Positions 6,835-63,281 of a DNA stretch of 64,000 bases are shown here, piece by piece. This DNA comes from an uncultured Verrucomicrobiae bacterium (GTDB lineage: Bacteria; Verrucomicrobiota; Verrucomicrobiia; Chthoniobacterales; Chthoniobacteraceae), in contig CAWIKF010000002.1 in the NCBI GenBank assembly GCA_963836755.1, positions 32,001 through 96,000 on the forward strand, given 5' to 3'. A program made the position numbers and the translations under genes. The notes beneath the pieces are model-generated. The model was not told where the DNA came from. It did no database searches and saw nothing but the letters and a program-made list of their open reading frames with translations. Every line of letters starts with the position of its first letter. The stretch's first letter is position 1.

Positions 6835-6919
6835 TGGTGGGCAGGGTTGGATTCGAACCAACGAAGGCAATGCCAGCGGATTTACAGTCCGCCCCGTTTG
6901 GCCACTCCGGAACCTACCC
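6835..6919 (-). tRNA. tRNA-Tyr(GTA)
   Basis: Minus strand GGGTAGGTTCCGGAGTGG...CTGTAAA...GGTTCGAATCC...CCCACCA; long variable arm; CCA encoded. Confidence 0.97.
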
Positions 6920-13946: not shown

Positions 13947-14345
13947 TTAGTTGTAAGGCGACCAGAACGCGGCGGGCGCCACGTCGGACAAGTTGTTGAA
14001 GGTGCTCGTAGGCACTTTCGGCAAGCTGTCGACCGTGAAGGTGCCGAAGCTGTTGCCGAACATGTCGGTGCCCGTGGTATAGAGCGTCGTGCCGGCTTTG
14101 ATGTAGTTCTTGAGATCCGCAAACGTCGGGTTAGACCCGCTCAGCTTGTTGTTCTCAATCGCGTATTGATCGACGGCCGAATCAATGATTCGAAGATCTT
14201 CGAGCACGCGTGTTGCCTGTGAGCGCTTGCGTGCACGCAGGAAGTTTGGCACGGCGATTGCCGCCAGAAGGGCGATAATCGCGACCACGATCATGATTTC
14301 CACGAGGGTAAAGCCCCCGCGACGGTTGTTTAGTTTTTGTAACAT
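13947..14345 (-). CDS. Type IV pilin (class III signal peptide), probable major pilin
   Basis: Short basic leader MLQKLNNRRGG followed by FTLVEIMIVVAIIALLAAIAVPNF with E5; 121-aa mature protein with no cysteines. Confidence 0.9.
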   Translation of the reverse strand: MLQKLNNRRGGFTLVEIMIVVAIIALLAAIAVPNFLRARKRSQATRVLEDLRIIDSAVDQYAIENNKLSGSNPTFADLKNYIKAGTTLYTTGTDMFGNSFGTFTVDSLPKVPTSTFNNLSDVAPAAFWSPYN

Positions 14346-19185: not shown

Positions 19186-22100
19186 TCAACTGCAGCCCTG
19201 GCTCGTCCCGCATTCGGTGCAACATCCGCACGCCCCGGCGCGGATCACCTTGTTGCTCCCACAGTTTGAGCAGGTCACATCCATGAACATCGTGCCGAGC
19301 GCCACACTCACCCGCTCGGCGTGCGTATCGGCGTGGCCATTCGAGGAAACTTGCGGCGAGCCTTCGCTATTCGCCGTGTTTAAAAAGACGTCGATGATTT
19401 CCTTTTCCGCAGTTCTCGAGAGATCGGCCACGGGCCTGTTCAGCGCCTTTTTCTCCATCTCGGTGATACCTTTCATCGGCAAATCCGGCTGCGCGGCGTG
19501 CGGCGCGGTCGCTTCTTTGTAGCCCTTGATGAACTGGCAGGCGAGCCAGCGGAAGACGTAATCGGTGATGCTCGTCGCATTCCGGATGTCGGGGTTCCGC
19601 GTGAAGCCGCTCGGCTCGAAGCGCTGGTAGGCAAACTTTTTCACGAGGCTCTCCAGCGGCACGCCGTATTGCAGCGCCATTGAAGTCAAAGTCGCCACGG
19701 TATCCATGAGACCGCCAATGGTGCTGCCTTCCTTCGACATTTGGATGAAAAGCTCGCCCGGCTGGCCGTCCTCATACAAGCCGACCGTAATGTAGCCTTC
19801 GTGACCGGCGATTTCGAATTTATGCGTCAAAGACAGGCGCGTGTCCGGCATCCGATGGCGCAGCGGCTGGTTAACTTTGCCGCGCAAGGTTTCGAGCTCA
19901 GTGTTTAGCTGGATGATCCGCGCCTCGAGCTCCTCCTTGGAGGAAATTTCGGCCTCGATCTCGCCCGCGGCACCCATGTCCTTCGTCTTTTTGACGTTGA
20001 GAGGCGCGCTTCGCTTCGACCCGTCGCGGTAGATGGCGATGGCTTTGAGCCCGAGCTTCCAACCCTCGATGTAAGTGTTCACGATATCGTCCACCGAGGC
20101 GTGCTCGGGCAGGTTGACGGTCTTCGAGATTGCGCCGCTGAGGAACGGCTGCGCTGCCGCCATCATCCGGATGTGACCTCTGTAATGCAAACTGCGGCGT
20201 CCTTTGTGCGGTTTGAAGGCGCAATCAAACACGGGCAAATGTTCGGGCTTCAATCCGCTCTGTATCATCCGCGGACCTGAGGATTCGGCTTCAAATGTTA
20301 AATCTTGCGATCCCAACATTGAGTCTTTGGATCCAGACATTGGATCTTTGGATCCCAATTTTGAACCTGGAGATCCCGAGATCGAACCTCCGGATCGCGA
20401 TGCCGAGCCTAGCGATCCCGATGCCGAGCCTGTGGATCCCAATGCCGAGGTATCGGATCGCGATGTTGAGCCTGCCGATCCCGAGATTGAGGCTTGGGAT
20501 TCGTCGATGACATCTTCAATCGTGTCGTGCTCGTTAATATGAGAGATGATCCGCTCAATCTCTTCCTGGGTGTAACCAAGGTTCTCCAGCGCGGGCCGGA
20601 CGGTCTGGTTGACGATCTTTAACATGCCGCCGCCGGCCAGCAGCTTGTATTTTACGAGCGCAATGTCGGGCTCGATGCCGGTGGTGTCGCAATCCATCAG
20701 GAATCCGATCGTGCCGGTCGGGGCGAGGACGGTGACTTGCGCGTTCCGGTAGCCGTGCTCGCGGCCGAGCGCCGCCGTTTCGTCCCAAATGCGCTGCGCT
20801 TCCTCTTTTAAATAACCAAACTTTGCCGACGGATGAATGGTCTCGACGGCGGCGCGATGCCGCTCGATGACCTCGAGCATCGGCTCGACATTATCCGGCG
20901 CGAGGGGCGTCTCGACGCCGCTGGCGCGTGCGTCGCGGAAGCCGGGGAAGGCGCCCATGAATTGCGCCATGAACGCGCTTTGCCGGTAGGCTTCGCCGTG
21001 CATGATCGCGGTGATGGCGCCGGCGAGCGCGCGGCCCTCGTCGCTGTCGTAGCCGAGGCCGTAGCTCATGATGAGCGCGCCAAGGTTTGCGTAGCCGAGG
21101 CCGAGGGTGCGGAAGATGTGGGAATTTTCCGCGATTTCCTTGATCGGATAGCTGGCGTTATCGACGATGATTTCCTGTGCGGTGATGAAAAGTCGCACGG
21201 CCGCCTTGAAGCGTTCGATGTCGAAGCTGCCGTCGGCTTTTTTGAACTTCAGGAGGTTGAGCGACGCAAGATTGCACGCGGTGTTGTCGAGGAAAAGGTA
21301 TTCGCTGCACGGGTTGGTCGAATTTTGACGCGCAGTGCCTTTGCAGGTGTGCCATTTGTGAATGGTCGTGTCGAATTGCATGCCCGGGTCGCCGCAAATG
21401 TGCGTCCCCTCGGCAATCATGCGCAGCAACCCGCGCGCATCTTTTTTCTCGCACGGCTTGCCGTCCGTCACGCGGCGTGTCCACCATTCGCGGCCCTCGA
21501 TCGCGGCCTCCATGAACTCGTCGCTCGCGCGAACGCTGAGATTTTCGTTTTGATACATGATCGAGCCGTATGCGTCGCCGTTGTAGCTGCCGTCATAACC
21601 CTGCTCGATGAGTGCCCAGGCCTTCTTTTCCTCGTTGGTCTTCGCCCGGATGAATTCCTCGATGTCCGGATGCCAGTCTTTGAGGGTGTTCATCTTCGCT
21701 GCGCGCCGGGTTTTGCCGCCACTTTTGACGACGTTGGCCACTTGGTCGTAAACTTTGAGGAAGGAAAGCGGCCCGCTGGGCTTGCCCCCCCCGCTCAACT
21801 TTTCCCGCGTGCTGCGCAGCGACGAAAGATCGGTGCCCGTGCCGCTGCCATATTTAAACAGCATCGCCTCGCTCTTCGCGAGCCGCATGATGTCCTCCAT
21901 CGTGTCGCCCACGCTCTGGATGAAGCATGCGCTGCCCTGCGGATATTCGTATTGGGTCGGCGCCCGTTCCGCCTGGCCCGTGCCGTGGTTGTAGTAATAG
22001 TTCCCTTCGCCCGCGTCCTTGCCGATCCCATATTCGTGATGGAGCCCAACGTTAAACCATACGGGAGAATTGAATGCGCCATGCTGGTTTACGCATAGCC

Positions 22101-22515
22101 AGGTCAGCTCGTCGTAGAAACGTTCGGCATCTTCACTGCTCGCGAAGTATCCGTCCTTCACGCCGCAGTCGGTGATCGTCCGCGTCACGCGATGCACGAG
22201 TTGCCGGACAGAGTTTTCGCGTCCGCCCTTGTAGGGATCGGTGCCATTTGCGATGTCGCCGTAGAAATATTTCGAGACCGCGATCTTTGTCGCGAGCGCG
22301 CTCCAGCTTTTGGGCACCTCGATATTTTCTTGTTTGAAAATCGATTTTCCGCCGTCGTCGGTGATTTCGGCGGTGCGATTTTCCCATTCGATTTGTGCAA
22401 AAGGCGAGACGGTTTCGTTGCTGAAAACACGTTCGACCTTCAATCCCTGTCCTTGGCGGGACGGGGCATTGACCTTCAGGCGGTCGGCGCTAACGCCGGA
22501 TTTTAATTTGATCAT
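19186..22515 (-). CDS. nrdJ: Vitamin B12-dependent (class II) ribonucleotide reductase
   Basis: FNSPVWFN, SACFI, TNPCSE, CNLAS and APTGT motifs, TSCPD-type C-terminal region and terminal Cys cluster (C..CG...C..CGTSQGCS). Contains an in-frame repeat insertion. Confidence 0.95.
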   Translation of the reverse strand: MIKLKSGVSADRLKVNAPSRQGQGLKVERVFSNETVSPFAQIEWENRTAEITDDGGKSIFKQENIEVPKSWSALATKIAVSKYFYGDIANGTDPYKGGRENSVRQLVHRVTRTITDCGVKDGYFASSEDAERFYDELTWLCVNQHGAFNSPVWFNVGLHHEYGIGKDAGEGNYYYNHGTGQAERAPTQYEYPQGSACFIQSVGDTMEDIMRLAKSEAMLFKYGSGTGTDLSSLRSTREKLSGGGKPSGPLSFLKVYDQVANVVKSGGKTRRAAKMNTLKDWHPDIEEFIRAKTNEEKKAWALIEQGYDGSYNGDAYGSIMYQNENLSVRASDEFMEAAIEGREWWTRRVTDGKPCEKKDARGLLRMIAEGTHICGDPGMQFDTTIHKWHTCKGTARQNSTNPCSEYLFLDNTACNLASLNLLKFKKADGSFDIERFKAAVRLFITAQEIIVDNASYPIKEIAENSHIFRTLGLGYANLGALIMSYGLGYDSDEGRALAGAITAIMHGEAYRQSAFMAQFMGAFPGFRDARASGVETPLAPDNVEPMLEVIERHRAAVETIHPSAKFGYLKEEAQRIWDETAALGREHGYRNAQVTVLAPTGTIGFLMDCDTTGIEPDIALVKYKLLAGGGMLKIVNQTVRPALENLGYTQEEIERIISHINEHDTIEDVIDESQASISGSAGSTSRSDTSALGSTGSASGSLGSASRSGGSISGSPGSKLGSKDPMSGSKDSMLGSQDLTFEAESSGPRMIQSGLKPEHLPVFDCAFKPHKGRRSLHYRGHIRMMAAAQPFLSGAISKTVNLPEHASVDDIVNTYIEGWKLGLKAIAIYRDGSKRSAPLNVKKTKDMGAAGEIEAEISSKEELEARIIQLNTELETLRGKVNQPLRHRMPDTRLSLTHKFEIAGHEGYITVGLYEDGQPGELFIQMSKEGSTIGGLMDTVATLTSMALQYGVPLESLVKKFAYQRFEPSGFTRNPDIRNATSITDYVFRWLACQFIKGYKEATAPHAAQPDLPMKGITEMEKKALNRPVADLSRTAEKEIIDVFLNTANSEGSPQVSSNGHADTHAERVSVALGTMFMDVTCSNCGSNKVIRAGACGCCTECGTSQGCS
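20281..20503. repeat. 21-bp degenerate tandem array (~10 units) inserted in frame in nrdJ, bounded by 7-bp direct repeats GGATTCG
   Basis: GATC at 20309, 20330, 20351, 20372, 20393, 20414, 20435, 20456 and 20477; GGATTCG at 20281-20287 and 20497-20503, 216 bp apart. Confidence 0.9.
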
Positions 22516-22598
22516 GGCAATGTCTTTAAAGTTTGACTGGGCGGCTGCGAATAAGCTGCCAATAGCTTGTGGATTGCCGGTGAATTCCCAGCCAATAA

Positions 22599-22645
22599 CC
22601 ACACTATATCGGCAACGCGATGACCTTAACCACAATATGTGGTGG
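22599..22645. promoter_or_regulatory. Tandem NrdR boxes upstream of nrdJ
   Basis: CCACACTATATCGGCA (22599-22614) and CCACAATATGTGGTGG (22630-22645), 31 bp apart, match acaCwAtATaTwGtg. Confidence 0.8.
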
Positions 22646-22743
22646 GACAAGAAAAATCGAGCGGCGGATTAAAATACCTGTGGAACGAAGGAAAACAGTG
22701 CGTTCCAGCCCGACGAAAACCCCGCCGACGAGCGGAAAAGCCG

Positions 22744-40720: not shown

Positions 40721-40725
40721 GTAAT

Positions 40726-40841
40726 ACTGGCAACGTCCTACTCTCGCACAACCTATAGATGCACTACCATCGGGGCTGCAGCGTTTCACTTCCGTGTTCG
40801 GAATGGGAACGGGTGGGGCCACCGCGCTAGGATCACCAGAG
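40726..40841 (-). rRNA. rrf: 5S rRNA
   Basis: CCCGTTCCCATTCCGAACACGGAAGTGAA...GATGGTAGTG...GAGAGTAGG conserved 5S segments; ends approximate. Confidence 0.95.
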
Positions 40842-41159
40842 ACCTGGCGAATCCGAGATTAGAATCCTGTGGGAGCTTGTCCTGAGGACTGTTCCGGGGG
40901 CAGAACTAGCCTCGAATTCACCAGATCACTAGCGACGTCTGTCGTTTGGCCGCTGCGTCGCTTCGCTTGAAATCCTTCGCTTTCGCAGGGGACTACATGC
41001 GGACGACGATGTTAATTTAAAAGAACCGATTTGATTCTCTGATATCTACATACAGGAAGTTTCACAACCGCTAAGACTGAGTTTTGTTTAAAAGTCATCT
41101 CTTTTCCTGTGCGTCCGCGGCAGCTTTGACACTGACGCGGCGAGCGATGAAAAAATAAA

Positions 41160-44015
<2,856 letters not shown>

Positions 44016-44238
44016 AATCTGATCCGACTTACGTCGGAAATTTATGATAACTGAAATCCTCACTGCAACCTTCCGGTCGCTGATATTTCAGACTCAGCGC
44101 TTAAAGTTGTTTTACTACCCTGTATGTAGATGTCAAAGAACCATCTTCGCTCTCAAGGCGAAGAGATACGCTCAACTCCTGAATTTTTACGTTCGTTAAA
44201 CGTCAAAACGGTAATTTACTGCTTCACGACGACCTTAA

Positions 44239-44312
44239 TGGGCCTGACTGGGCTCGAACCAGTGACCCTGCGCTTATCAAGCGCATGCTCTAACCAACTG
44301 AGCTACAGGCCC
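44239..44312 (-). tRNA. tRNA-Ile(GAT)
   Basis: GGGCCTGTAGCTCAGTTGGTTAGAGC...TTGATAA...GTTCGAG...GGCCCA; CCA not encoded. Confidence 0.96.
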
Positions 44313-44339
44313 GGTCGAGTGGTTTTGTTGCTGACCAAT

Positions 44340-44412
44340 TGGAGGCATGGGGATTCGAACCCCAGACCTATAGCTTGCAAAGCTACCGCTCTACCAACTG
44401 AGCTATGCCCCC
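44340..44412 (-). tRNA. tRNA-Ala(TGC)
   Basis: GGGGGCATAGCTCAGTTGGTAGAGC...TTTGCAA...GTTCGAATCC...CTCCA; CCA not encoded. Confidence 0.96.
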
Positions 44413-44589
44413 GGGGAATTCGAATGACCTTCTTAGCGACTGAGCCATTCGCCTTTGAAGCAAAAACTGAACTGTACGTTACCGTTTCAAATGCTTTGAG
44501 CTTTAGTTTCTTTCGTTACTAAAGGCTTTAAGGCGGCATGACATTTCTGTTTTAGCCGTCGACCTACCACGATCTGCAAAGATCGCGAT

Positions 44590-46158
<1,569 letters not shown>

Positions 46159-46556
46159 AAAGTTTGCCCGGTCGACTGCTAAAGCCGCCGGTAAAATCTG
46201 ACCGTTTCAATTTCCTGTCGCGAGAGTATCGCGAACAGGGTTTGTCCGATCTTTAAATATTTGAATCAAAGATTTGACGTATAACGCACAATTCAATTTT
46301 TGCTGTCAATTTCGCCCCGAATTTCTTCGGGGCATTACCGTTCTGAATCTCCCAAATGAAATTCCAGAATTAAGCTTTCAAATATCAACGGCTCTTTACG
46401 AGCTTTCGGGCGACAAAAAACTCAACCTCGTGTCCGACAATAATCTCGGCAGTTTCCGCCGAATCATGGCCGGGACAAGATTGAGTCAATCTGAAGTCCC
46501 AAAAGTTGAAAGAACCTCTCGCTTTAGTCGCGAGCCCCGTTGTGTGCGGGGAATCA

Positions 46557-60085: not shown

Positions 60086-61039
60086 TCATACCACCGGCGC
60101 GGTGATCGTGATGGTGCGCACGCTGCCCGTCGTCGTCCCGTTTGCATTGGAAACGCGGGTGCGGATTTTCACCGTCTTCCCGACCGCGAACGGCCCGAGC
60201 GCATTCCCACTCGGATCCGCCGCCACCGAGTGCGTGAAATCAGTATCGATCCCCACCACCTGCCACTCGACCACGCTCTGGGCGCTGCCGTCGTAGCTCC
60301 CATTGTCATAGCTCAAAAGCAGGTGCAACCCGTCCGTGCCGCCCTGCAGGATCGTGCGAATGCCGAGCGTGCCCGGCCGGTTCGCATCCTCGGTGACGAT
60401 CTGCCCGAGCGCAGCCTCCAGCGCCGGGTTCGTCCGCGCCTCGCCTTCGAGTTTCGCGTAAGCACGCTTGTTCAGCCGGTCGAGCACCAATGCGTCCAGG
60501 CGCAAAGTCGTGCGCGCCGCCGTCACATCCGCCACGCGATCTTCGAGCGTCTGCTCCAGCGTCGGTTGCGCGGTCATCGCCGTGGTGAGATCGCTCACGC
60601 CTTTGCCGCCACTCGTGATGGCATTGCGCGGCGGCACTTGCGCCGCGAGATACGTGTTCGTTTTCGTCAAAGCTGCCACGACTTTTTTACCGCGCTCCAT
60701 CGCCGAGTCGGTGGTTCTCGGCGTGACGGCGTAGGCGGGTGAGAGGAGGTCGAGCAACGCCGATTCCGCATCGATGCTGTCCGAGAGATCGCCTTGCGCC
60801 GCCGCCGGCAGCGTGAGATCGAGCGCGCGGATGAGCAGGTAACCCTGGTTTTCCGCGTTATTCGCCGCGTCAAAATCGGCCAGCGCATTGTCGCGCGTCT
60901 GGGCGAGTCCATCGAGCGCGTCCGATTGCGTCACCATGTCCGCCGCTGTCGCCGTGCCGATTTTGAGGGTCGGGAGGTATTGATTGATCACCGCCACGGT
61001 CTGCGCCGTGCGTGTTTGGATTGCCTGATAGAATTCCAT
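60086..61039 (-). CDS. Hypothetical protein: two related helical repeats plus C-terminal FN3-like beta-sandwich; no signal peptide
   Basis: Host-like codon usage; internal similarity between G.....D..T......LAQT.D...ADFDAA and G.....D..T......LEQT.ED..ADVTAA; FN3-like end GKTVKIRTRVSNANG. Confidence 0.75.
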   Translation of the reverse strand: MEFYQAIQTRTAQTVAVINQYLPTLKIGTATAADMVTQSDALDGLAQTRDNALADFDAANNAENQGYLLIRALDLTLPAAAQGDLSDSIDAESALLDLLSPAYAVTPRTTDSAMERGKKVVAALTKTNTYLAAQVPPRNAITSGGKGVSDLTTAMTAQPTLEQTLEDRVADVTAARTTLRLDALVLDRLNKRAYAKLEGEARTNPALEAALGQIVTEDANRPGTLGIRTILQGGTDGLHLLLSYDNGSYDGSAQSVVEWQVVGIDTDFTHSVAADPSGNALGPFAVGKTVKIRTRVSNANGTTTGSVRTITITAPVV

Positions 61040-61177
61040 AATTGGTCTTTCTGTTGTTCTGCTGGGTTAAATCCCGCACGGAATGCGCGGGAAAGCTGTT
61101 TTGGCCCCGTCAATCGCCGTTCGCGCGCGCCAACCGCCTCCGCGCGCCGGAGAAACCGCTTTTACTGGCCAAAAAGT

Positions 61178-61408
61178 CATTTCCCGATGCCACGGGGACG
61201 TTTCCACACCCCGCGGAGACGTTTCCCGAGGGCAACCGGACGTTTCCCAACCGCAACCCGACGTTTCCGCACCCCAACCGGCCATTTCCCGATGCCAACC
61301 GGCCATTTCCCAAGCCCAACCGGTGATTTCCCGAGCCCGTGGGGACGTTTCCGAAGCCCAAAGGGACGTTTCCCGACCCCAAAGGGACGTTTCGCGTTCG
61401 GATGTTGG
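61178..61408. repeat. 21-bp degenerate tandem array (10 full units plus a decayed 11th)
   Basis: Units start at 61178, 61199, 61220, 61241, 61262, 61283, 61304, 61325, 61346, 61367 and 61388; consensus cRTTTCCnnAnnSCRnnngGn. Confidence 0.92.
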
Positions 61409-61423
61409 ATTTGGCGGTCATAT

Positions 61424-62164
61424 CTAGTCTTTGCTCTCAATTTCTTCGTCTTCGTCGGCGGTTCCGGCAAAGTCGGCGAGCCGCTCCTCGGCCAGTCGCT
61501 CAAGTCGCCGAGCTTGGGTGAGGAGTGTGGTTCTAAGCCATTTTGTAACTTTGCGTTCGCTAATGACACGAGCGAGGGCGGCGATAGTGCTGGCGCGGCG
61601 GGCAATGCGAACGTCTGGATGCTTGCGCTGCGGAAAGATGTCGGACGGAATAATGCGCCCGACATACGCGTCGGGCAGGTTGATGAGGTCGGTCTTTCGC
61701 GGTGCCTTTTCGTTAAGCACGGCCTTGAACGAAGACTCCTCAATGACTTTGACGTAGAGAGTGTATTCTGCACGGTCGAGTTCGGTCTTGATGTCTTCTT
61801 TGGAAAGATGGCCGAGATCGAGCGGCCAGACGCGGATTTCAGCAACTTCGAATGGGTCGAGGACATTCATCGCCACGGCATCGGTGCGTTGATTGGTAAG
61901 ATGCCGTCCAATACGCGCGCCGAGTCCCTCATAAGTCTGGCCAATGTATATGGGTTCGCCATCGTAATCATAAAAAGCATACACACCGCATTGTGCGGCA
62001 CCGATACGCTTGCCATTTGCGTCGGTGCTTCTCAGGAAAGCCTGGATTTCCCGGCGAATTGCCGCCACGTCACCGGGTTGTCCCTCGGGCAGCGGCTGGA
62101 CGTTAGCGGTTGGCACCGTAGCGGACGGCTTGGCTGCGGGTTTTTGCTTCTTTGGGTTGGGCAT
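61424..62164 (-). CDS. GIY-YIG nuclease, putative restriction endonuclease
   Basis: GVYAFYD...IYIGQT...RIGRH, later E and N (AEY...LNE); overlaps the end of a C5 MTase gene. Confidence 0.8.
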   Translation of the reverse strand: MPNPKKQKPAAKPSATVPTANVQPLPEGQPGDVAAIRREIQAFLRSTDANGKRIGAAQCGVYAFYDYDGEPIYIGQTYEGLGARIGRHLTNQRTDAVAMNVLDPFEVAEIRVWPLDLGHLSKEDIKTELDRAEYTLYVKVIEESSFKAVLNEKAPRKTDLINLPDAYVGRIIPSDIFPQRKHPDVRIARRASTIAALARVISERKVTKWLRTTLLTQARRLERLAEERLADFAGTADEDEEIESKD

Positions 62165-63281
62165 GGAGAGCGTCAGCGAGCGGAGTGAGATAGTTGTCGG
62201 CAATCCAACGGATGGCGGGAACGCAGACAGCATCGCCGAATCCGAAGAGAGCTTGATTGAGAGGCACGTTCACGAGGAAGTCGTCGGCACCCATGAGGCG
62301 GGCGCATTCGCGAGCGGTGAGAAGGCGCACGGCGAAACGATTCTTCCCAGCGACAAACAGAATCTGCCGCCCGCTGCCGCCGCGCGGAGTGCGGAGACAT
62401 CCGGCAATCCCATCGGTTCGCAATTCAGCCATTGAACCTGTCGCACGGACGCGCCGAAAAACTGTGGCGTAGGAGCGTCGCGGAGCGCGGATCATCACTT
62501 CTGCTTGGGCGCGATGCTTGGGACTCATCTGGTTGAGCAGGTAATCGCAACGCTCCTGACTCCACCAAGCGGCGGAATTTGGAGAAAGGTCTTCAATAAG
62601 GTCAGCCAGCCGGGTTTCGTGGTTTGGCAGCGATGGCAGCGGGCGGAGATTCCATTGAACATCCGGGTGCCAGAGGATGAAGTCCGCAAGCGCCGCCGGA
62701 CGCAATTCGCTTTGCAGGAGACTTGGAGTTTCTGCGATTCGTGCGGTGGAACCGTGTTGGCCCACAACGAAAAGTCGCTGGCGGCTCTGTGGGACGAAAC
62801 GCGATGCGTCAATGATGAAGGCGTCCACAACGTAGCCGAGGCCATTGAGGGCGAGCAGCGCCTCGTGGAAGTCCGTGCCATTATGCGAGGTGAGAAAGCC
62901 CGTGACGTTTTCCAGCAAAACCAGCGGTGGCCGGCGCGCTCCCATTTCCTTGAGGACGCGAATGAAACCCCAGAACGCCGAGGAATGTTCGCCAGCGAGA
63001 CCTTTGCGCGCACCGGCAAGCGAGAGGTCATTGCAAGGAAAGGAGGCAGTGGCGAGAGTCGTCGTTGGCACTGTCGTCACATCAAGTGCGTGAATGTCTC
63101 CCAGCACAAACTCCGGTGAAGGACCGAAGTGATGGCAATACATCTCCTTCTTTTTCTCATCGATGTCGTTGGCGAAAACCGTCCGCCATCCTGCCTGATC
63201 CAGCCCGAATCGCATGAGACCGATGCCTGCGAAATACTCCGCAACAGTTGCTCGATTTCCGCATTGGAGGATTTTTTCCAC
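62103..63281 (-). CDS. DNA (cytosine-5)-methyltransferase
   Basis: Motif I FAGIG, IV SFPCND, VI ENV, VIII QSRQR, IX RECARL and X GDAV. Confidence 0.95.
   Translation of the reverse strand: MEKILQCGNRATVAEYFAGIGLMRFGLDQAGWRTVFANDIDEKKKEMYCHHFGPSPEFVLGDIHALDVTTVPTTTLATASFPCNDLSLAGARKGLAGEHSSAFWGFIRVLKEMGARRPPLVLLENVTGFLTSHNGTDFHEALLALNGLGYVVDAFIIDASRFVPQSRQRLFVVGQHGSTARIAETPSLLQSELRPAALADFILWHPDVQWNLRPLPSLPNHETRLADLIEDLSPNSAAWWSQERCDYLLNQMSPKHRAQAEVMIRAPRRSYATVFRRVRATGSMAELRTDGIAGCLRTPRGGSGRQILFVAGKNRFAVRLLTARECARLMGADDFLVNVPLNQALFGFGDAVCVPAIRWIADNYLTPLADALHAQPKEAKTRSQAVRYGANR

Follow-up and report, generated by a model that had tools for sequence, protein, structure and literature searches.

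An in-frame array of 21-bp repeats in a verrucomicrobial nrdJ probably belongs to a genome-wide array and helical-gene module

Inteins and self-splicing introns are foreign elements found in frame inside ribonucleotide reductase (RNR) genes. Rickettsia palindromic elements (RPE) are found between genes and also in frame in conserved protein genes, in 19 genes, with activity kept in the enzyme tested (PMC2229807, PMC3184786). The BrickBuilt MITE of Porphyromonas gingivalis is a dispersed 23-nt minisatellite that occupies ∼0.5% of the genome and has promoter activity in segments (PMC4596501). SPDIR microindels of Acinetobacter baylyi place ectopic DNA at microhomologies with variable ends and no transposase (10.1101/2023.11.22.568220), and illegitimate recombination has been put forward as a general source of small in-frame segments, in an account whose accessible part describes no array of the kind reported here (PMC2884548).

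The nrdJ gene of an uncultured Verrucomicrobiae bacterium of the family Chthoniobacteraceae lies in the window analysed here, the whole stretch of 64,000 nucleotides from contig CAWIKF010000002.1. A sequence-only reading had described in this gene an in-frame 216-bp block of about ten 21-bp units, and the phase of GATC, the spacing and the open frame bear this out. The features concerned are as follows.

19186..22650, minus strand: nrdJ, class II (B12) ribonucleotide reductase (NCBIfam PRK06556, 1301 bits against a cut-off of 859; TIGR02504 also over its cut-off)
20288..20503, minus strand: in-frame insertion of 216 bp (72 aa), Ser/Gly-rich, supported by relatives' loop lengths and third-codon-position GC (GC3), with borders uncertain by about one codon
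20287..20496, no strand assigned: ten head-to-tail degenerate 21-bp units, nine of them with the GATC core in phase; arrays of partner family C have the nearest unit profile
20281..20287, plus strand: GGATTCG, left copy of a 7-bp direct repeat that does not share the phase of the units (chance 3.8%)
20497..20503, plus strand: GGATTCG, right copy of the repeat, in phase with the GGATC core of the units; junction microhomology or chance

Within the array, GATC recurs at 20309+21n in nine units (20309–20477), a decayed tenth unit lies at 20287, and identity at a lag of 21 reaches 0.67, against a mean of 0.31 and a maximum of 0.41 in 2000 codon shuffles. The two copies of GGATTCG, which is the CGAATCC reported earlier for the coding strand, start at 20281 and 20497 and are thus 216 bp apart, and the nrdJ frame stays open.

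The likely start of nrdJ is the ATG at 22512, which gives a protein of 1108 aa. It is the only match to PF02867 (Pfam) in this 96% complete genome, and a Pfam search of the same genome gave no NRDD match and hence no class III RNR. Since neither another class I/II enzyme nor a class III enzyme was found, nrdJ is the sole RNR found in the genome and the enzyme with its insert is probably essential. The spacing from LGY to HLPVF in NrdJ is 113 aa here, compared with 38–40 aa in 19 of 21 readable genome relatives (52 and 63 aa in the remaining two) and 30–40 aa in 69 of 71 readable metagenome loci (the two exceptions have 51 and 52 aa); the metagenome set comprised 80 loci, seven without the site and two mis-anchored. 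None of the relatives with a readable loop, 21 from genomes and 71 from metagenomes, has the 72-aa insert, and in the 150 genomes of the family, 104 of which matched the nrdJ region, none of the matches listed covers the insert as a single open piece. The alignment of relatives thus shows a clean indel and no gradually expanding linker. The loop is permissive, because Rhodobacter NrdJ (PDB 7B9P), with ∼100 additional residues at the insert's position, and the relative G006, with an unrelated 7-bp-repeat insert, also carry extra sequence there. In G006 such 7-bp-repeat inserts (SAIRNPQ and SFVIRHSS types) are found in frame in nrdJ (L005), leuS and ispG (L050, L057), in the same loops. One metagenome relative (L097) has a short local duplication in the NrdJ loop.

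The array had been proposed to be foreign DNA that a variable loop tolerates, and this is upheld by the gap in relatives and by third-codon-position GC (0.44 for the insert, 0.77 for nrdJ outside it). The units bear no resemblance to the flanking nrdJ sequence. Excision had been expected to restore a plausible loop; the gap in relatives is indeed clean, but the loop left after removal of 72 aa is 41 aa long, one more than in any ordinary relative, and the exact borders are therefore uncertain by a codon. The insert is neither an intein nor an intron, as had been recognised: a Pfam scan of NrdJ found no intein family, the insert being a 72-aa low-complexity stretch, Rfam matches in the window were confined to rRNA and tRNA with no intron RNA, and, unlike those elements, the insert sits in a variable loop and not at a conserved motif. 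In a public run that may be the source sample (X1), one contig spans the junction at 20503 and differs at 2 of 230 bases; across four public DNA runs no contig joined the flanks at the array borders and no piece covered the whole insert, and no excised or length-variant allele was seen. The nrdJ insertion is real, and its mechanism is in part inferred. The 72 residues would be translated as a disordered loop, and the insert is probably retained in the NrdJ protein.

The 7-bp repeat had been likened to a target-site duplication, an interpretation that finds no support here: an in-frame 7-mer repeat of this kind arises at 3.8% of random sites, the right copy follows the phase of the units, excision of 72 aa gives a loop one residue longer than in ordinary relatives, and the ends of 38 arrays show no excess of direct repeats (longest 6.03, background 5.99). 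Nor was the lone CGAATCC predicted for the empty site found, GAATCC being present in 0 of 74 relatives' empty loops, none of them from a strain close enough to show the true empty site. Inverted repeats at the ends of the same 38 arrays are likewise at background (5.84 against 5.89). These tests used array edges, not true insertion borders, so that short duplications could be missed, and of the arrays in the set one was gene-linked and two carried pieces of genes. The nrdJ insert has no complementary ends. Its folding z-scores are −1.6 (DNA, plus strand) and −2.75 (RNA, coding strand), with several local hairpins, and it contains no REP hairpin and no attC end.

The array probably belongs to a genome-wide module of arrays and helical genes that was invisible to the earlier reader. 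Periodic loci in the genome number 64 at a lag of 21, 57 at 42 and 15 at 41, with 8 or fewer at lags untied to 21, and after nine of 78 periodic loci were dropped by eye as coding or low-complexity, ∼69 arrays remain, with a period of 21 or 41/42, lengths of 100–570 bp and many unlike units. They make up 0.57% of the genome, yet 20 of its 103 recently duplicated segments, a ∼35-fold over-representation (count against share of bases). Conservation at the DNA level had been proposed for the nrdJ array, and this holds for the arrays in general: 37 arrays together show no codon-position pattern (p 0.92), the six frames have about the same heptad identity and some arrays have a period of 41, which places the constraint on the DNA. 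The further suggestion of stronger conservation in the xRLxIGI frame fails, since heptad identity there is 0.49 against 0.48 in the NrdJ frame and 0.39–0.48 in the other four; that frame also holds a stop. No A/T phasing at 10–11 bp was seen within units. A period of two helical turns that lacks a codon pattern is consistent with a protein-binding array of the centromere or iteron type.

A motif, TTTACTCTG, lies beside 17 arrays of unlike unit. The 8-mer has 31 copies in the genome, and 12 of the 15 copies of the 9-mer TTTACTCTG(T/G) adjoin arrays; it is also beside arrays in 6 of 7 matches examined in G001 and 3–5 of 7 in the congener G002, and is kept in genus g23. In G001 and G002 it usually stands between array and gene, while in the present genome (G000) the side varies. 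By its placement it looks like a promoter element; a promoter scan of the window's own module found no sigma-70 consensus. The nrdJ insert is without the motif.

The second array of the window shows the gene-linked arrangement:

61147..61395, minus strand: second 21-bp array of the window, with a different unit, gene-linked; closest relative of the in-frame array in alaS
60086..61039, minus strand: gene of the 317-aa partner, immediately downstream of that array; a bundle of long helices with a C-terminal FN3-like domain is predicted, no Pfam or NCBIfam family

The model of the 317-aa protein has a pLDDT of 94.3, and its residues 218–317 match FN3 folds (Z 10.6, rmsd 2.9, 93 aligned). Approximately 22 arrays in the genome lie 30–390 bp upstream of genes for proteins of 200–350 aa, which fall into several unnamed families, some with FN3; this count is partly circular, as seeds were picked beside arrays. 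An unbiased test is given by family C, whose homologues were found by protein alone: among 17 relatives an array lies upstream at 20 of 25 loci with enough DNA and downstream at 0 of 25, against a background of 26 in 600 for arrays beside ordinary ORFs. A search for loci with a single protein returned one locus, with a Chthoniobacterales label and the array again upstream. Taxon labels of homologues in general indicated Verrucomicrobiota, probably Chthoniobacterales. The family-C protein is modelled with confidence as a long-helix bundle (pLDDT 93.6), for which fold searches gave generic helical bundles only (best Z 9.2); neither it nor the helical part of the 317-aa protein has a clear fold relative or a Pfam or NCBIfam family, and families B and C share a similar predicted helix layout with no profile match. 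DUF6261 (PF19775) had no match over cut-off in this genome and matched 0 of 88 family-C members and 0 of 10 other partners; a DUF6261 cluster came up only as a lead (0.86). No nuclease, recombinase or polymerase family or fold was found among the partners.

Two observations concern the surroundings of such modules. Directly upstream of the window's module, at 61424–63281, lie a GIY-YIG-like gene and a C5 DNA methylase, a probable restriction-modification pair. At G000:C2:1045863-1046542 (L152) a 21-bp array breaks the upstream rule, standing at the 3′ end of an unknown gene of 159 aa.

Arrays that are not gene-linked are accompanied by at most a fragment of a partner. In this genome they occur in frame in four conserved genes, nrdJ, alaS, ispG and leuS, some running with the host gene and others against it. 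Two of them, in alaS and ispG, can be traced to gene-linked arrays: the alaS array (G000:C1:61210-61488) is 76% identical over 207 bp to the window's array at 61147–61395, with a shared sharp start and a profile z of 8.5, and the ispG array is 85% identical over 110 bp to that at C2:2228712 (profile z 6.6). Some detached arrays are more uniform than their donors, the ispG copy having 92% unit identity. The leuS array is nearest to a truncated family-C module (profile z 5.1). The congener G002 has two in-frame arrays in the same alaS and leuS loops, unlike those of this genome and with no donor detectable by BLAST. Direct repeats are present at plausible borders of the nrdJ (7 bp) and alaS arrays, the latter imperfect (10/12, background 8.7%), and absent from the borders of the ispG and leuS arrays.

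Other traced copies extend to various points. Array a40 is a 496-bp, 96% copy of a32 that ends ∼80 nt into the gene, and a5 and a12 share 662 bp ending ∼23 nt into the gene; in the pairs a29/a43, a50/a37 and, in G002, L210/L214, the shared segment stops before the start codon. In a51 the middle of the gene, which is most of it, is deleted, and lone 3′ gene ends with a terminator also occur. Traced copies are colinear with gene-linked donors, flanking non-repeat DNA included, with ragged and no fixed ends, and contain DNA from both sides of the promoter-like motif. The idea that such arrays can move or be written into new sites is therefore right as to their reaching new sites; ‘written’ is not supported, given this colinearity, the flanking non-repeat DNA and the failure to find a reverse transcriptase (no RVT_1 match in the 96% complete genome; the control was positive in 3 of 14).

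The wider search for copies of the nrdJ unit gave a mixed outcome, with related arrays elsewhere in the genome and no close copy by BLAST or unit matrix, and so no source. By pattern no donor was found in 150 genomes of the family or in the genome collection, and BLAST against 400 genomes of the order gave only one 34-bp match, within a coding region. The unit profile is nearest to two orphans and to family-C arrays (best z 4.0–4.5 among 86), and the four best of the 23 gene-linked arrays are all of family C, which contributes 6 of the 23 (z 1.8–2.8 each); this is suggestive of derivation from family-C arrays.

Two further loci were noted in passing. At G000:C1:278907-279071 a 21-bp array shares an uninterrupted open frame with the start of an ABC ATPase gene, possibly a fifth in-frame case or else a 5′ extension. 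At G000:C1:273583-274680 a copy of a family-C array and leader, which contains a 7-bp palindromic element and a REP-like hairpin, is fused to the 3′ part of a family-B gene.

Set beside the described systems, these arrays resemble RPE in being short repeat elements placed in frame in conserved genes, here nrdJ, alaS, ispG and leuS. RPE, however, are stem-loops of 105–146 bp with terminal inverted repeats, whereas the present elements are head-to-tail arrays of 200–300 bp that lack them, with dozens of unlike units, and derive from the upstream region of a gene family. With BrickBuilt they share a dispersed minisatellite character, units of ∼20 bp and a similar share of the genome; BrickBuilt, in contrast, has one unit family, a leader, a tail and IS-like inverted ends and is always intergenic (PMC4596501), while here there are many unit families, a fixed period of 21 or 41/42, a partner gene, in-frame copies and no inverted ends. 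The terminal inverted repeats and fixed ends of MITEs and non-autonomous IS are both missing. REP/REPIN elements with RAYT have a 20–40-bp palindrome, a terminal tetranucleotide and a flanking RAYT gene, none of which the nrdJ insert has. SPDIR events span 3 to ∼100 bp and are very rare, with no donor bias described in the accessible account (10.1101/2023.11.22.568220), unlike the 200–660-bp copies seen here. In the literature accessible to us no description was found of 21-bp arrays as companions of these genes or as in-frame insertions, and the array-gene module appears to be undescribed in print.

Several other mobile sequences share the genome. Its alaS (G000:C1:58953-62516, L031) contains a RAYT domain, two 71-bp REP-like copies and the 21-bp array, all in frame, and its C-terminus stops early relative to relatives. 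The RAYT (REP-associated tyrosine transposase) domain covers residues 639–778 of AlaS (NF047646, E 3e-17, below cut-off); it is one of two Y1_Tnp domains in the genome, and a free RAYT at C2:2206312-2206767 is flanked by its own palindromes and not by arrays. In G016, alaS and leuS each contain an in-frame RAYT-like domain. An integron-like region lies at C2:763489-767261, with an integrase gene at C2:765095-765667; this region and C2:1468814-1480463, C2:1266891-1275195, C2:1340292-1344892 and C1:703433-704694 hold clusters of attC-like repeats, and the modules a37, a54, a18 and a51 are beside or within such clusters, some beginning at GCCTAAC. Two copies of a pilin-like gene with an N-terminal methylation motif lie at window 13947–14345 and G000:C2:2075704-2076102 (94%, 399 bp). 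The window also contains an rRNA operon with tRNA-Ile and tRNA-Ala (40725–46159) and a tRNA-Tyr (6835–6919).

We consider it fairly likely that the nrdJ insert is a detached array of 21-bp period, of the sort normally found upstream of a helical-bundle gene, which was pasted in by illegitimate recombination of the microhomology type and kept since the frame stayed open. A fragment of an array-gene module would come loose and be captured at a permissive loop via microhomology; selection would keep those insertions that leave the frame open, as 216 bp does, and with a unit of seven codons later gain or loss of units would preserve it as well. The donor may have been a family-C module that has since been lost or has diverged. 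As alaS, leuS and the sole RNR could not have harboured a whole module while it decayed, array-only pieces were presumably inserted directly. Illegitimate recombination is favoured because inverted ends, a duplication rule, fixed ends and a reverse transcriptase are all lacking, and the pasting may have needed no dedicated transposase. Random illegitimate recombination alone does not explain why arrays are favoured donors. The array could be a same-face platform of multiple sites, two helical turns apart, for a DNA-binding protein, most simply the product of the adjacent gene, and either protein binding or the repeats themselves might make it a frequent source of loose or single-stranded DNA.

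A more active role for the partner would turn the module into a selfish element, in which binding of the partner to the array would favour release of the array and its re-insertion, detached arrays being non-autonomous progeny. The tight one-sided pairing across genera (20/25 upstream, 0/25 downstream), the ∼35-fold excess among duplicated segments and the conserved edge motif beside 17 arrays of unlike unit all speak for this. Even so, we regard it as unlikely, as the partners lack any nuclease, recombinase or polymerase family or fold, self-comparison of the genome reveals no recent whole-module duplicate, the ends are ragged, and TTTACTCTG is placed like a promoter element, on a varying side, and is missing from the nrdJ copy. 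It is equally a speculative step, and an improbable one, to suppose an undescribed selfish class with no transposase, integrase or reverse transcriptase, in which the partner would dock on or wrap its own 21-bp-phased array, releasing DNA that is seeded genome-wide, while the 7-codon period would let the seeds enter essential enzymes and keep changing there as low-complexity domains.

Mobilization in trans, with arrays hitch-hiking on RAYT (the HUH transposase of REP elements) or on the integron integrase, is more doubtful still. One of the two Y1_Tnp domains is in frame within alaS, the same loops accept REP-like and 7-bp-repeat inserts, a REP-like element lies within the a5/a12 copy, a54 and a18 start at attC-like GCCTAAC ends and a37 follows the integrase gene; the nrdJ insert and most traced copies nevertheless have neither REP hairpin nor attC end, and no terminal sequence is common to them. 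That slippage grew the repeat locally from nrdJ's own loop as a Ser/Gly linker would fit the failure to find a close donor, the variability of the loop and the short duplication in L097, but is very improbable given that 92 readable relatives show no intermediates, that the units are unlike the flanks, that GC3 is 0.44 against 0.77, and that length, period and unit profile fit the genome-wide array family. Copying through RNA, or synthesis at the site by a reverse transcriptase primed on the 7-mer, might account for the direct repeat and for arrays more uniform than their donors (ispG, 92%), yet is highly improbable, with no RVT_1 match in the 96% complete genome and with copies that include both sides of a promoter-like motif, occur in both orientations and keep the unit order of the donor.

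Detachment and illegitimate pasting of arrays, our preferred reading, ties a puzzling in-frame repeat to a widespread, uncharacterised module of array and gene. There is direct evidence that arrays leave their genes by copying and can land even in genes that tolerate no interruption; since copies occur in such genes, the array must travel alone. This constrains how the modules spread, with donor array, partner protein and orphan copy all available in one genome. It also gives heptad ‘linkers’ in essential enzymes a source other than protein-level selection, in a lineage whose same loops gather arrays, 7-bp repeats, REP-like hairpins and whole RAYT domains.
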